A stretch of 32,000 bases of DNA from Nautilia sp. PV-1 (GCF_004006315.1 NZ_CP026530.1:585889-617888), one strand, 5' to 3'; shown: positions 12,058-17,336, counted from the stretch's first letter. Notes: generated by a model not told the origin, from the sequence alone. Translations and numbers: made by a program.

Positions 12058-12134
12058 GGAGCCGTAGTTTAGCTGGTTAGAATGCCGGCCTGTCACGCCG
12101 GAGGTCGCGGGTTCGAGTCCCGTCGGCTCCGCCA
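12058..12134 (+). tRNA. tRNA-Asp (anticodon GTC); attachment site of the integrated element
   Basis: GGAGCCG/CGGCTCC acceptor, CTGTCAC anticodon loop, encoded CCA. Its 3' 17 nt recur at 17319..17335. Confidence 0.95.
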
Positions 12135-12135
12135 T
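12118..12135 (+). repeat. attL core repeat (tRNA-Asp 3' end)
   Basis: TCCCGTCGGCTCCGCCAT, identical to 17319..17336; flanking bases differ on both sides. Confidence 0.85.
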
Positions 12136-12186
12136 CACTTCAAAAACTCCGTAATTTCGGTATCTTTTAAAAATCAACGAGGTAAG

Positions 12187-12230
12187 TGTCAGTCGTTTTT
12201 GGCGGATTTTTACTGACAATTTAACTGACA
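12187..12230. repeat. Candidate left integrase arm sites
   Basis: Inverted TGTCAGT at 12187-12193, direct ACTGACA at 12212-12218 and 12224-12230 (12-bp period); same pair near the right end. Confidence 0.55.
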
Positions 12231-12263
12231 AATTTTATTTGTTTTTAAAAAATTATTTTATTT

Positions 12264-12692
12264 TTATAAATGTATAATTTCTATATTAAAAAATTTTTTT
12301 AAATATTCTGCACTTAATCTTCTGTGACATTTATCAGCTGTCTTTTCACTACATAATAAAACTGCATTTTCAAAATCATTAATATTTATTTTATCTTCTA
12401 TTTTTCTTTCTTTTAATAAGTTTAAAAAAATATTTTCATATTCTTCCCATGTTATTTTTTTATTTTTATAGTTTTTCAATAATTCTTCTGTTGGAAAAAA
12501 AAGTTTGTTATGTTCATATTTAATACCATGTAATTTTAAAAAATAAGGAAAATGTTTTATATTTGTAAAGCCAGCAAGTTGTGACTTATTATTTAATCTT
12601 ATATCTATAACTTTTTGTATATTATTTCTAGTTAGTAAATTAAAAAATTCTTCCGCACTTTTTCCAGAAAATCCAATTGTAAATAATTTCAT
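12264..12692 (-). CDS. DUF488-family protein (short form)
   Basis: MKLFTIGFSGKSAEEFFNLLTRNNIQKVIDIRLNNKSQLAGF...WEEYENIFLNLLKER...AVLLCSEKTADKCHRRLSAEYL. Confidence 0.85.
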   Translation of the reverse strand: MKLFTIGFSGKSAEEFFNLLTRNNIQKVIDIRLNNKSQLAGFTNIKHFPYFLKLHGIKYEHNKLFFPTEELLKNYKNKKITWEEYENIFLNLLKERKIEDKININDFENAVLLCSEKTADKCHRRLSAEYLKKFFNIEIIHL

Positions 12693-13303
12693 TCATTATC
12701 CCCTTCTTTAGTAAATATATTGTAAGCTATATCTATATTTCTAAGCTTATATGCTTTTTGTAATCTTTCTTCATCGCTGATTTCAGGATGAAATAAATTT
12801 TTTTCTGGTAAAAATTTTATATATTTTTCCAAAAGTTTTTTTTCAAGGTAGGCTTGGGATAGTATTTTATCAGGATAAATATGATAAATATTAAATTTAT
12901 TTCTTAGGAATCTTGAAATTAAAGAAAATCTGTGGCAATCAAACGCTTCTTTTTCGCTGCACATTAATGCGATTTTATAACCTTTTTTTACCCCGTTTAA
13001 AATTCTATCAATTCCGTCTTGAAATTTTTTAGTTTGCATTACTTTTTCAAAATTTACTTTTCCATCTTCAAAAATTAAATTTTTATCTTCCCATCTTGCA
13101 CCTAAAGAATTGCCCATAAATATATAATAAATTTTGTTTTTCTTTAAATAAAATTGTAAATCTTCTTTATTGAACCAGTAAGCATATTTTGAATAAGGAA
13201 TACTTCTTACATCTACAATTACATCAATATTATTTTTTTGAAGTAATTTTATAAAATCTTCTAATTTATGTGTAGAATGCCCTATCGTGAAAATTTCTTC
13301 CAT
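12689..13303 (-). CDS. DUF488-family protein (second, distinct subfamily, 204 aa)
   Basis: EIFTIGHSTHKLEDFIKLLQKNNIDVIVDVRSIPYSKYAYWFNKEDLQFYLKKNKIYYIFMGNSLGAR...IALMCSEKEAFDCHR; 4-nt overlap with the downstream DUF488 gene. Confidence 0.85.
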   Translation of the reverse strand: MEEIFTIGHSTHKLEDFIKLLQKNNIDVIVDVRSIPYSKYAYWFNKEDLQFYLKKNKIYYIFMGNSLGARWEDKNLIFEDGKVNFEKVMQTKKFQDGIDRILNGVKKGYKIALMCSEKEAFDCHRFSLISRFLRNKFNIYHIYPDKILSQAYLEKKLLEKYIKFLPEKNLFHPEISDEERLQKAYKLRNIDIAYNIFTKEGDNE

Positions 13304-13322
13304 TTTAATTAAACTCCTATAT

Positions 13323-13988
13323 CTATAAACCTAGGATATCCCATACCTTCTTTTCAGGAAGTATATCTACAAATACTTTTGCAATAATTTTATAACAGTT
13401 GCCGTTAAATGGTTCTCCTAAACTAACAACGAGATAAACATCTTCTATAACTTGTTCTTTTAAATATTCAAAATCCGGATCAGTTAATGGCAAATCGTAA
13501 GTTATATTATTATATATAAATTTTCCTCTTCTTTGCAAAGATTTATTATTTCCTCTATCTTTCCAATATAAACTGATTTTATTAACCTTAATTAAAAAAA
13601 GAGAATAATTAATTTTAAGGTTTTCATCATACTTTATATAATTTTCTTTTCCCCATAAGCTTTTAGGAGTATACACAAAATTTTCTAATTCCTTTAAGTC
13701 AATTTCATTTATAAATTCAATTTTTTTATCAATAATAACATTTTCTGGTTGACAATTTAAAGGAACTTCTTTTAATATTTTTATTTTTGCCAAAAAAGGA
13801 AGATTATTTCGTATTGGAAATATGCAATTATATCCGAGTATATTATAGTCACTCCAAATAATTTCTTTTCCGTTTTTATCTGCAACTATTCGGTAAAATT
13901 TTTTATTATGTATGTCAATTACTGCTACACAATTTTCTGAATGTTTTACTGATGAAGCTACAAAAATTACTTTTTTTTCCAAAATCAT
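13323..13988 (-). CDS. Hypothetical protein resembling dual OB-domain (DuOB-like) family; first gene of the DUF488 operon
   Basis: FVASSVKHSENCVAVIDIHNKKFYRIV..., PLNCQPENVII, YDLPLTDPDFE resemble the family from memory only; 19 nt from the next gene. A TTG start at 13982 is possible, because AAGGA abuts the annotated ATG. Confidence 0.5.
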   Translation of the reverse strand: MILEKKVIFVASSVKHSENCVAVIDIHNKKFYRIVADKNGKEIIWSDYNILGYNCIFPIRNNLPFLAKIKILKEVPLNCQPENVIIDKKIEFINEIDLKELENFVYTPKSLWGKENYIKYDENLKINYSLFLIKVNKISLYWKDRGNNKSLQRRGKFIYNNITYDLPLTDPDFEYLKEQVIEDVYLVVSLGEPFNGNCYKIIAKVFVDILPEKKVWDILGL

Positions 13989-15598: not shown

Positions 15599-15787
15599 TT
15601 AGTTTATCGTAGAAGATGTTTGAGGTTGTTGAATGTTATTATTTGGAAGTGAGAGAAGTTTGTTTAATTCAGATTGAGTAATATTAATCTGTTCTTTTAT
15701 CTTTTTTATTTTCGATTCCAGTAGGGCTTCTTCTTTTTGCAGTTTTTCTAACTTATTGATTAGCTGTTTTATTTTTCTGTAATCCAT
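15599..15787 (-). CDS. Small coiled-coil protein (possible mobilization accessory protein)
   Basis: 62 aa, MDYRKIKQLINKLEKLQKEEALLESKIKKIKEQINITQSEL...; AAGGAG 7 nt upstream of the ATG; divergent from the HTH gene. Confidence 0.5.
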   Translation of the reverse strand: MDYRKIKQLINKLEKLQKEEALLESKIKKIKEQINITQSELNKLLSLPNNNIQQPQTSSTIN

Positions 15788-15935
15788 GGGATAACTCCTT
15801 TTGAGATTAATTATAATAAAGAAGTTATCTTTAAATCGTTTTAGTAAAAAAATTTAAGAAATTTTCAGAAATTTTTTCAATTTCGAGTTTTTTTGAAATT
15901 CTTTATTATAATTAAGTAACAAAAAGGATAAGCCT

Positions 15936-16151
15936 ATGAAGCCTTTTTGTTACTCTACATCTAAAATGGCAGACTATCTCGGTGTAAGTAAAGACTTTCT
16001 TCTTAAAAACAAGAATAAACTCTTCAAAAAAGGAATCCACTATTACGAACCGTATGGAATAAAGAAAACCTTATGGAACGTAGCACAGATGGAAAAATGG
16101 ATAACGGGCAGGGAGGAAAATCCTTTTAAAGAGATTTTAAATGAGCTATAA
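15936..16151 (+). CDS. AlpA/excisionase-like helix-turn-helix DNA-binding protein
   Basis: 71 aa, STSKMADYLGVSKDFLLKNKNKLFKKGIHYYEP...KTLWNVAQMEKWITG; 39 nt upstream of the integrase. Confidence 0.6.
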   Translation: MKPFCYSTSKMADYLGVSKDFLLKNKNKLFKKGIHYYEPYGIKKTLWNVAQMEKWITGREENPFKEILNEL

Positions 16152-16190
16152 TTGTATTACGATTGACACTTACCTCATAGGAGGTAAGAG

Positions 16191-17264
16191 ATGATAGAAA
16201 ATCCAAAAGTTAGTTTGTTTAATAGAAAAGGGAGATTATACGTTCAGTATTATATAAACGGCAGGTGTGTTCAAAAGTCACTTAAAAGGGATTACACCAA
16301 AGAAAACGTTAAGCTCGCTAAAAAATACGTTATTCCCGAAATCGAGAGGAAAATACTTTTAGGCGAGATTCAGGACAGTAAATTTAAACCCAAAGAATTC
16401 AAACATTACGCCGAGCTGTATCTGAAACAAAAAGAGTCTCTTAAAACATGGAAAGAGTTTAACAATATGGTTTCAAACCAGTTGATACCCGTTTTTGGAA
16501 GTTATACGATAGATAAAATCTCAAAAGGCTTCATCAAGCAATGGGTTGATGAGAGATTAAAAGAAGTCTCACCCATAAGAATGCAAAAATTTCTTGGAAT
16601 TCTTAAAGCCATATTTGAAATAGCAATTGACTATGAGCACATAAAAGAAAATCCTTGTGACAGAATCAAACTTCCAAAACATAATCCGATTAGGCAGATG
16701 TATCCTTTCAGTAAAGAGGAAGTAACTCTTATACTTAACAATGCTGACGGATGGTTTAAAAACTATTTGGCAATCGCTTTTATGACTGGTATGCGTCCGG
16801 GTGAGATTATCGCTTTAACGATTGATGATATCGATTTGGAAAATAAAACCATTAACGTAGATAAAAGAATCAAAAAAGGCGAAATAGGCACACCCAAAAC
16901 AAAACACTCAATAAGAAAAGTTCCTATAATGGATGAGCTTATCCCTTATTTAAAAAATCAAATCGAAACTCAAAAACAAAAAGGTCTTGATTTACTCTTT
17001 ACCACAATCAATAACAGGATGTATTACGACAGCGATAAATTCCATCCCTTCTGGTACAGACTGCTTGATAAGTGCGGTATTGAGAGAAGGGTAATGTATA
17101 ACACCAGACACACGTTTGCCTTAAACGCAATAAGAGCGGGTATCAATATACTTGACGTATCACAGATACTCGGACACAAAGATTCATACGAGACTCTTTC
17201 AACCTATGCGAAATACATAAAAAACGAACATTTAAAGATTAAAAGAGACATAAAACTTTACTGA
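16191..17264 (+). CDS. Tyrosine recombinase / phage-type integrase
   Basis: GMRPGEI (R), TPKTKHSIRKVPI (K region), YNTRHTFALNAI (xxxRH), ILGHKD (H), TLSTYAKY (Y); GGAGG RBS upstream. Confidence 0.93.
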   Translation: MIENPKVSLFNRKGRLYVQYYINGRCVQKSLKRDYTKENVKLAKKYVIPEIERKILLGEIQDSKFKPKEFKHYAELYLKQKESLKTWKEFNNMVSNQLIPVFGSYTIDKISKGFIKQWVDERLKEVSPIRMQKFLGILKAIFEIAIDYEHIKENPCDRIKLPKHNPIRQMYPFSKEEVTLILNNADGWFKNYLAIAFMTGMRPGEIIALTIDDIDLENKTINVDKRIKKGEIGTPKTKHSIRKVPIMDELIPYLKNQIETQKQKGLDLLFTTINNRMYYDSDKFHPFWYRLLDKCGIERRVMYNTRHTFALNAIRAGINILDVSQILGHKDSYETLSTYAKYIKNEHLKIKRDIKLY

Positions 17265-17278
17265 CAGTTCTACTGACA
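17260..17278 (+). repeat. Candidate right integrase arm sites
   Basis: ACTGACA at 17260-17266 and 17272-17278 (12-bp period), the first overlapping the integrase stop codon. Confidence 0.55.
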
Positions 17279-17318
17279 ACATAACGAAAAACACCATAAA
17301 TTCAATGTTTGAGAAATT

Positions 17319-17336
17319 TCCCGTCGGCTCCGCCAT
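17319..17336 (+). repeat. attR core repeat
   Basis: TCCCGTCGGCTCCGCCAT, exact copy of 12118..12135, not part of a complete tRNA. Confidence 0.85.

Follow-up and report, generated by a model that had tools for sequence, protein, structure and literature searches.

A compact tRNA-associated element of Nautilia sp. PV-1 with a divergent MOBV-like relaxase and a candidate antiphage cargo

We analyzed a 32,000-nucleotide stretch of the chromosome of Nautilia sp. PV-1, a deep-sea vent bacterium (GCF_004006315.1, NZ_CP026530.1:585889-617888; here called the window, with positions counted from its first nucleotide), focusing on a 5,219-bp segment that abuts the 3' end of a tRNA-Asp gene. This segment belongs to a small Nautiliaceae family and is very likely a canonical integrative mobilizable element (IME), about 5.2 kb in size, for which a mechanism of movement can be proposed. 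It is a new IME family within a known kind of element and not a new kind of element.

The segment is bounded by an exact 18-bp direct repeat, TCCCGTCGGCTCCGCCAT, which consists of the last 17 nucleotides of the tRNA-Asp gene and the next base. The attL copy is located at 12118-12135 (+), and the attR copy, followed by the chromosomal flank, is at 17319-17336 (+). The integration target, tRNA-Asp(GTC) at 12058-12134 (+; ARAGORN; Rfam tRNA, 69.8 bits), is the last gene in a Lys-Glu-Val-Asp tRNA cluster (11771-12134, +), and it stays intact because the element brings an identical 3' end. When we searched the window with a 20-mer and allowed up to three mismatches, only the two repeat sites were recovered, with none expected from 100 shuffles. 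Two empty sites demonstrate that insertion at the tRNA-Asp 3' end was precise to the base. First, the genome of N. lithotrophica contains the same tRNA cluster 156 bp from orthologues of the right-flank genes (an 83-aa open reading frame [ORF], a CxxCxxCC protein, and an M90 peptidase) with nothing between, and the synteny breakpoints identified by BLASTN fall exactly at window positions 12135 and 17319. Second, a contig of 5 kb derived from a sequencing run (L008) matches the window at 99.8% identity over 5,016 bp, from 17319 onward. The sequence 5' of its repeat is GTTCGAG, the genuine tRNA T-arm, not the element's GAGAAATT, and the contig is an empty attB in a nearly identical strain. Upon excision, attP would be expected to read ...GTTTGAGAAATT, TCCCGTCGGCTCCGCCAT, and CACTTCAAAAACTCC... 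in succession, leaving an empty attB that reads ...GGTTCGAGTCCCGTCGGCTCCGCCATTTAATGCTTC....

Seven ORFs fill the interval between the repeats: two DUF488 proteins, a DuOB (dual OB-fold) protein, a 441-aa protein, a 62-aa coiled-coil protein, a 71-aa helix-turn-helix (HTH) protein, and a 357-aa integrase. Among these seven, there were no matches to replication, type IV secretion system (T4SS), coupling-protein, or transposase families in Pfam, NCBIfam, PHROGs, or PADLOC. The integrase gene (int, 16191-17264, +) adjoins the tRNA-distal repeat, directly downstream of the HTH gene (15936-16151, +). On the opposite strand are the gene for the 441-aa protein (mob, 14086-15411, -) and, upstream of it, the gene for the coiled-coil protein (15599-15787, -). 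An AT-rich intergenic region with promoter-like sites and inverted repeats (15788-15935) separates the coiled-coil/mob unit from the divergent HTH/int unit. The coiled-coil protein, which yielded only weak coiled-coil matches in Pfam, NCBIfam, and PHROGs, is 89 to 98% conserved in the sister elements described below and is possibly a relaxosome accessory protein or a regulator. Thus, the initial annotation of this segment was correct in its main points: the exact duplication of the tRNA-Asp 3' end that bounds it; the presence of an integrase, an HTH protein, a small coiled-coil protein, and a single cargo operon; the lack of replication, conjugation, and transposase genes; and the position of the integrase at the tRNA-distal end. 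The empty tRNA-Asp sites likewise favor the element that it proposed.

We found the same backbone in Caminibacter pacificus (loci L003, L005, and L006) and in a metagenome-assembled genome (MAG) of the Nautiliaceae (L009), so variants that share Int and Mob with the window and carry different cargo, as the initial annotation had anticipated, do exist. Compared to the window, the sister proteins are 93 to 96% (HTH), 89 to 98% (coiled coil), and 84 to 87% (Mob) identical. Three sister elements (5.3, 9.9, and 5.7 kb) are located at tRNA-Ser(GGA), each bounded by a 17- to 19-bp repeat of the tRNA 3' end, and their gene order is that of the window: tRNA, cargo, mob, coiled-coil gene, divergent HTH and int, and attR. 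Comparison of whole elements revealed a conserved left arm (12118-12238), an unrelated cargo slot (approximately 12239-14075) flanked by the attL arm and the 3' end of mob, and a conserved backbone (approximately 14076-17336). The shared backbone spans about 3.2 to 3.3 kb and is 80 to 83% identical. The slot holds defense-type cassettes in three of the four close elements. Among the sister elements, L003 has a GmrSD/HEC-06-type nuclease in this slot, L005 has Vsr and an AAA_5 module along with two C5-methyltransferases, and L009 encodes a small membrane protein, a Sel1-repeat protein, and an XRE-type HTH protein.

A metagenome scan for close relatives returned five loci, three of which were already known. 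Outside the window, PV-1 itself encodes a second, diverged Mob (C3L23_02165; 437 aa, 86% identical). A metagenomic contig (L001/L002) with a Mob identical to C3L23_02165 carries an integrase that is 96% identical to that of the window over its first 269 residues, suggesting that PV-1 probably holds two sister elements. In two of the C. pacificus loci (L005, 642-7934; L006, 632-8102), attR and an ankyrin-repeat gene are separated by an additional 7.4 kb or so that encodes CHAT, VWA, Ser/Thr kinase, and CTP-transferase-like proteins. This stretch is absent from the other C. pacificus strain (L003), in which attR abuts the ankyrin-repeat gene. We considered tandem accretion at the L005 attachment site and rejected it: there was no third att copy even when three mismatches were allowed, and the 7.4 kb is therefore not a simple tandem insertion. 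At a greater distance, a soil Proteobacteria MAG (JAGDMU010000007; L015, 4195-15035) has a segment of about 10.8 kb at tRNA-Leu(TAG) with a 3'-end duplication of at least 46 bp. It contains a Mob that is 35% identical to that of the window, a tyrosine integrase, the same GTAC hairpin core as that described below for the window, a SocA/Panacea antitoxin-domain protein, and a beta-flower protein, and the segment appears to be a distant relative of the Nautilia element.

In PV-1, the cargo slot is occupied by three consecutive, codirectional genes that match the PADLOC PDC-M45 models A, B, and C in order. The first (13323-13988, -) encodes the 221-aa DuOB protein (PDC-M45A; PF22557, 8.7e-36; PDLC04653, 3.2e-27). 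It is followed by genes for DUF488 proteins of 204 aa (12689-13303, -; PDC-M45B; PF04343, 2.6e-23; PDLC04657, 7.8e-57) and 142 aa (12264-12692, -; PDC-M45C; PF04343, 2.7e-18; PDLC04658, 2e-52). Based on these profile matches, the cargo is a candidate antiphage system, PDC-M45 (DuOB plus two DUF488 proteins). PDC entries are, as a class, untested candidates (bioRxiv 10.1101/2024.01.29.577857), and PDC-M45 itself was not found in the literature that we searched. The cargo operon had been recognized in the initial annotation; its identity as a candidate defense system was missing there, as were the arm sites and the candidate origin of transfer (oriT) described below.

The 357-aa integrase belongs to the tyrosine recombinases. 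It matched PF00589 (1.5e-22), PF14659, SAM-like and central domains, and phrog_1 (6.8e-69), while a match to the Pfam family Arm-DNA-bind_2 (E = 0.0038) was below the cutoff. Inspection by eye identified the catalytic residues R202, K236/K238, R306 (within Y303-x-x-R306), H329, and Y339. Overall, the protein is 64 to 65% identical to the sister integrases, and this similarity is unevenly distributed: identity is 95 to 98% over residues 1 to 62, 51 to 53% over residues 63 to 170, and 60 to 62% over residues 171 to 357. At the nucleotide level, codons 1 to 62 are 90 to 97% identical and the remainder is 67% identical. The 97-bp arm adjacent to attL (12136-12232, +) is also 97 to 98% identical in all elements, whatever the tRNA target, and the Asp and Ser tRNA cores differ at 3 of 17 positions. 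Both arms contain the heptamer ACTGACA, which occurs seven times in the window against an expectation of 2.05, with five of the seven copies in the two arms. Three of these putative integrase arm-type sites are in the attL arm (12187-12193, -; 12212-12218, +; and 12224-12230, +), and two are in the attR arm (17259-17318, +), at 17260-17266 (+), where the repeat overlaps the int stop codon, and at 17272-17278 (+). The simplest reading of these sequence comparisons is that the arm-binding domain of a lambda-type integrase, its arm sites, and its small HTH partner make up one conserved module, and that exchange of the core-binding and catalytic domains has retargeted the element between tRNA genes. 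We also observed that the attR-arm pair overlaps the end of int (17259-17280). The Asp-type gene terminates at a TGA within the first repeat. The Ser-type genes stay open across both copies and encode a C terminus that is 12 residues longer (...FTDNSTDSVSKKA).

The HTH protein encoded next to int is 93 to 96% conserved in the sister elements, and its family comprises nine clusters, all at least 76% identical. Matches to the excisionase-type families HTH_17 (E = 0.036) and TIGR01764 (E = 0.011) were both subthreshold. An AlphaFold (AF2) model with a predicted local distance difference test (pLDDT) score of 72.9 has a winged-HTH fold. Structural matches in Foldseek, which included Pukovnik Xis and BldC, all had E values above 0.2, and none was significant.

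The 441-aa protein is 100% identical to C3L23_03340 of Nautilia sp. PV-1. It had no match in Pfam, NCBIfam, PHROGs, or PADLOC, and its identification came through structure prediction after sequence libraries had failed. In an alignment of 25 diverse homologues, roughly 190 aa at the N terminus form a conserved domain, and a variable, charged coiled coil follows. Invariant positions in these homologues are S6, H8, H19-N20-x-R22, S77, N81, H112-x-D114-E115-G116, and N127-x-H129-x-H131, with the motifs in the window protein reading H19-N-S-R22, H112-K-D114-E115, and H129-A-H131. The AF2 model of the N-terminal domain had a pLDDT of 87.9 and a predicted template modeling (TM) score of 0.81. When this model was searched against the PDB with Foldseek, the top seven matches were all chains of MobM, a MOBV relaxase (E = 2e-6 to 5e-4; TM score, 0.54 to 0.69, with 0.64 to 0.69 at E = 2e-6), followed by the MOBQ relaxases MobA-R1162 and NES. 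We recovered the pMV158 record by tblastn for comparison with MobM. In the hhalign alignment, HKDEG...YHAH of the family was paired with HLDES-TPHMH of MobM, with a 10-residue insertion. The segment around the predicted nucleophile was left unaligned by hhalign, and we paired F-Y-H19-N-S-R of the family with F-K-H22-N-E-R of MobM by eye. MobM uses a histidine nucleophile and nicks a GpT dinucleotide 3' of a hairpin (PMC5863519).

The distribution of this relaxase domain extends well beyond the vent Nautiliaceae. Homologues with 29 to 47% identity were present on 165 PLSDB plasmids, mostly replicons of 3 to 6 kb from Campylobacter, Helicobacter, Arcobacter, and Bacteroides. On pSA2 of C. concisus, pFB1 of F. 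branchiophilum, and a plasmid of B. fragilis, the homologue has a separate Rep gene as its neighbor and is therefore not the replicase. The B. fragilis plasmid, whose homologue is 29% identical, was typed as MOBV by MOB-suite, which classified 91 of the 165 plasmids as "non-mobilizable." Included in this non-mobilizable set are plasmids whose gene is annotated by NCBI as a mobilization protein; plasmids that were matched include NZ_CP049265.1, CP134848.1, and NC_018751.1. An exhaustive profile search retrieved 1,615 Mob-family clusters (50% identity) at E ≤ 1e-10, a family that has no Pfam model. Weak matches to the PF03432 Relaxase family were obtained for 3 of 18 members (best, 7.5e-4). Of the features by which MOBV relaxases are recognized, the family has the MobM-like fold, motif I (HxxR), and motif III (HxDE...HxH), and it lacks a match to the Pfam Mob_Pre model. 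From the predicted fold, the motifs, and the plasmid context, we conclude that the 441-aa protein represents a divergent, MOBV-like relaxase clade that lies outside curated models, with the HUH domain predicted in its N-terminal 200 aa or so. The relaxase named in the initial annotation was thereby confirmed.

Immediately upstream of mob is a GC-rich noncoding block (15412-15500, -) that contains a perfect palindrome, GTAGTGCGTACGCACTAC, at 15461-15478. The core octamer of the left arm, AGTGCGTA, occurs again at 15425-15432 (minus strand). The block is 98 to 99% identical in L003 and L005, compared to 87 to 92% at the nucleotide level for their mob genes. A core with the pattern TGnGTACnCA was found upstream of mob in 19 loci, with one copy per locus except for a second copy in L013. 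These loci include distant plasmid-like contigs and chromosomal loci that have only mob in common with the window. Among nine distinct stem sequences, compensatory double changes affected 11 of the 14 base pairs, and 89.7% of cells were paired. None of 500 shuffles reached the observed values, and shifted registers were 27 to 52% paired. Given this conservation and covariation, we read the GTAC-centered hairpin upstream of mob as a candidate oriT.

Most relatives also have a GTGnG...T-rich tract 30 to 45 nucleotides 3' of the palindrome. A layout in which the hairpin is followed by an exact second copy of its core was considered as the mark of the nick site across the family and rejected: the exact repeat is present only in PV-1, L011, and L013. 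The exact repeat not being universal, we give the nick position only by analogy. In the distant relatives L010 to L015 and L022, the central palindrome is flanked by CCTTGTGG upstream and CCACAAGG(G) downstream or by related CACAAG motifs, an arrangement that points to nested inverted repeats making up a larger candidate oriT region. In PV-1, the motifs on the two sides, GCACAAGCG before the palindrome and TCGCAAGTG after it, are in direct orientation. The palindrome at 15461-15478 followed by ACGTTTTCGT was flagged as terminator-like on the plus strand, which is antisense to mob; on the mob strand, there is no run of T's after the palindrome.

These components can be assembled into a proposed mechanism. 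Int would recombine the attP core, equal to the last 17 nucleotides of the tRNA, with the tRNA gene, regenerating the tRNA in the process. Its N-terminal 62 residues would bind the ACTGACA repeats on both arms, and its core-binding and catalytic domains would set the target, which is tRNA-Asp in the window and tRNA-Ser(GGA) in the sister elements. Excision would also be carried out by Int. The 71-aa winged-HTH protein would probably assist as the directionality factor, and this assistance is the least secure part of the scheme. The MOBV-like relaxase would then recognize the GTAC-centered hairpin upstream of its own gene and nick near it, by analogy with MobM at a GTGnG/T-like sequence, using His19 as the nucleophile. 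Finally, a single strand would be exported through a T4SS with a coupling protein, both supplied in trans by a conjugative helper. Such a helper would be required because the element encodes no mating-pore or coupling protein. The cargo, which in PV-1 is the three-gene PDC-M45, would travel with the element. One plausible helper is a 92-kb plasmid of C. pacificus TB6, which encodes a T2SSE-family ATPase (1e-46), an SLT transglycosylase, and a protein with a borderline coupling-protein match. Next to these T4SS-like genes, the same plasmid has a truncated, 273-aa Mob homologue that is 46.6% identical to that of the window.

Several observations weigh against this interpretation. Excision by Int, nicking, and helper-dependent transfer are steps that we infer. 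The paper describing the PV-1 genome mentions neither a plasmid nor conjugation genes, and our own view of the genome is the 32-kb window. Close relatives are few and confined to the Nautiliaceae. The assignment of the 71-aa HTH protein as an excisionase (recombination directionality factor) or a regulator is putative, resting on its position and weak matches. For the relaxase, a search of PDB sequences gave no match with either the single sequence or the profile, and the hhalign comparison with MobM was weak (E = 0.0037; probability, 9%). The window protein was also unmatched by PF01076 (Mob_Pre), a family that was absent even at E ≤ 10 among those listed for 18 members. Predicted folding of the 99-nucleotide candidate oriT region did not differ significantly from that of shuffled sequences (z = -1.15), which is why we relied on conservation and covariation. 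Symmetric changes in a palindrome would also be compatible with an operator bound by a dimeric protein in place of an extruded hairpin. Lastly, in one C. pacificus sister element (L005, 10001-11318; record CP027432), mob is frameshifted into ORFs of 258 and 195 aa. This record comes from the same species as the 92-kb TB6 plasmid, probably the same strain, and a frameshifted mob in C. pacificus TB6 means that mobilization is not always maintained.

Some of these points bear on an alternative that we regard as unlikely, namely, that the segment is an integrative island that is not mobilized by conjugation and spreads by natural transformation or another route, with its HUH protein being the vestige of a captured small plasmid or an initiator of rolling-circle replication (RCR) of the excised circle. 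This explanation draws on the frameshifted mob in one sister and on the fact that no helper T4SS is known in PV-1. Furthermore, HUH relaxases and RCR Reps have a common fold, and the backbone resembles the mob-oriT unit of a small plasmid fused to an integration module. However, the predicted fold matches relaxases (MobM, MobA, and NES) and not Reps, and the homologue coexists with a separate Rep on three plasmids. The catalytic motifs are invariant across 25 diverse members, and mob is intact in the elements of PV-1, L003, and L009, with the cis site upstream of it conserved.

A second alternative, a phage satellite or cryptic prophage remnant at a tRNA gene that is moved by a helper phage, as in phage-inducible chromosomal islands (PICI) or P4-like elements, is far less probable. 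Integration at a tRNA 3' end, a phrog_1 integrase, a small HTH protein, and defense cargo are also typical of satellites. Yet the segment has no primase or replicase, capsid, small terminase, or packaging-redirection gene, its largest backbone gene encodes a relaxase, and apart from the integrase there was no significant PHROG match. We also scanned 2.9 million viral contigs for the attL arm and the oriT palindrome and found nothing, so neither the arm and oriT sequences nor an excised circular form was found in that collection. The remaining possibility, a chance repeat around ordinary chromosomal genes, has in its favor only that base composition is not distinctive (28.1% GC, similar to the flanks), and it is already refuted by a repeat with zero expected matches, by two empty sites with base-precise breakpoints, and by the same backbone at another tRNA with its own repeat.

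As an IME, the Nautilia element belongs to a well-described class, that of elements of 5 to 15 kb with a tyrosine integrase and a relaxase at tRNA 3' ends (PMC5704250). Tn5520 of Bacteroides fragilis, which consists of one integrase and one MobV gene, is even smaller (PMC5704250). Helpers of the broad-host-range IncP group mobilize Tn5520. The two elements share a single tyrosine integrase, a single MobV-class relaxase, the lack of a T4SS, and dependence on a helper, which for the Nautilia element is predicted, and the relaxase family of the window reaches small plasmids of Bacteroides, one of which is typed MOBV. In contrast, Tn5520, compared here by its description, is exceptional among IMEs in being cargo-free (PMC5704250), whereas the Nautilia element has a cargo slot, strict specificity for tRNA 3' ends, arm-type sites, and additional HTH and coiled-coil genes. 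IMESag-rpsI and other streptococcal IMEs resemble the element in their integration module, mobilization module, and cargo, in their size of 5 to 15 kb, and in the reassortment of modules (PMC5357655, PMC5090054, PMC5704250). Their direct repeats likewise keep the target gene intact. They pair a tyrosine integrase with MobV or another relaxase and integrate at the 3' end of tRNA or housekeeping genes. These IMEs differ in being found in Bacillota with antibiotic-resistance cargo, whereas the Nautilia element is from Campylobacterota, has defense-type cargo, and encodes a relaxase that is missed by Mob_Pre. According to a 2017 review, descriptions of canonical IMEs that encode their own relaxase were lacking for Proteobacteria (PMC5704250). 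Thus, the description of the segment in the initial annotation as an under-described compact IME family holds in a modest sense: the family is new, but its close relatives are few and elements that combine Int with MobV, such as Tn5520, are known (PMC5704250).

The individual modules have recognizable counterparts as well. MobM of pMV158, the MOBV1 prototype, is the best structural match to the relaxase and shares F-x-H-N-x-R (H22 in MobM, H19 in the window) and H-x-D-E...H-x-H. The two differ in sequence (approximately 16% identity), and the window family has a 10-residue insertion between HxDE and HxH and no PF01076 match. The pMV158 oriT lies just upstream of mobM, forms a hairpin, and is nicked in ...AGTGTG/TT..., an AGTGnGT-type core; it has three overlapping inverted repeats compared to the single long GTAC-centered palindrome of the window. 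Small cryptic plasmids of Campylobacter, Helicobacter, Arcobacter, Bacteroides, and Riemerella have a relaxase domain that is 29 to 47% identical, and metagenomic and MAG relatives have the same GTAC-centered hairpin upstream of mob. These plasmids differ in replicating autonomously with a separate Rep and in having no integrase or att sites. Like lambda-type systems, the element has a three-part integrase, arm-type sites that recur within each arm, and a small HTH gene adjacent to int, although arm binding is here only predicted and the element is not a phage.

Two further features of the window lie at or near the insertion site. A 796-aa ORF at 9193-11583 (-), which by eye reads as similar to a methyl-accepting chemotaxis protein, is located between a cytochrome-c3-like gene and tRNA-Lys. 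N. lithotrophica lacks the interval from 9192 to 11677, its cytochrome-c3-like gene and tRNA-Lys being direct neighbors; this is a second indel, on the side of the tRNA cluster opposite the element. In addition, the region at 12096-12271 (-) gave a subthreshold, full-length Rfam match to the Helicobacter "antisense RNA" HPnc0260 (44.4 bits versus a gathering score of 59). We rejected this candidate over the attL arm: the confident part of the match simply corresponds to the tRNA T-arm and acceptor stem in reverse complement, from which it appears that the Rfam family itself is antisense to a tRNA 3' end.

We tentatively extend these findings to a wider proposal, which we consider possible but short of probable. 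The element may be the integrated form of a large, unmodeled clade of MOBV-like relaxases with a histidine nucleophile (at least 1,600 clusters at 50% identity) and a conserved GTAC-centered hairpin oriT. Many small plasmids in the Campylobacterota and Bacteroidota that are regarded as cryptic or non-mobilizable would owe transferability to this clade. In vent Nautiliaceae, it would have been fused to an integrase with a fixed arm-binding module, arm sites, and HTH protein and an exchanged core-binding/catalytic module, creating a minimal shuttle for defense cassettes.

The element is notable for its host lineage, for its unmodeled relaxase clade with a candidate hairpin oriT, for its clean swap of integrase modules, and for its slot for defense-type cargo. 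It provides a canonical IME family, with its own integrase and its own relaxase, in the Campylobacterota, a phylum in which such elements are poorly catalogued. The paper on the PV-1 genome reported two predicted islands elsewhere and does not mention the present element. The relaxase clade is sizeable, is unmodeled by Pfam, and is often scored as non-mobilizable by MOB-suite, so that small plasmids of Campylobacter, Helicobacter, and Arcobacter may be mobile more often than such typing suggests. Together, the integrases of the Asp and Ser types constitute a natural domain swap and a compact system in which to study how tyrosine integrases change targets. Finally, the cargo slot agrees with the view that small mobile elements distribute antiphage systems, and the element offers a natural vehicle and context for testing PDC-M45.

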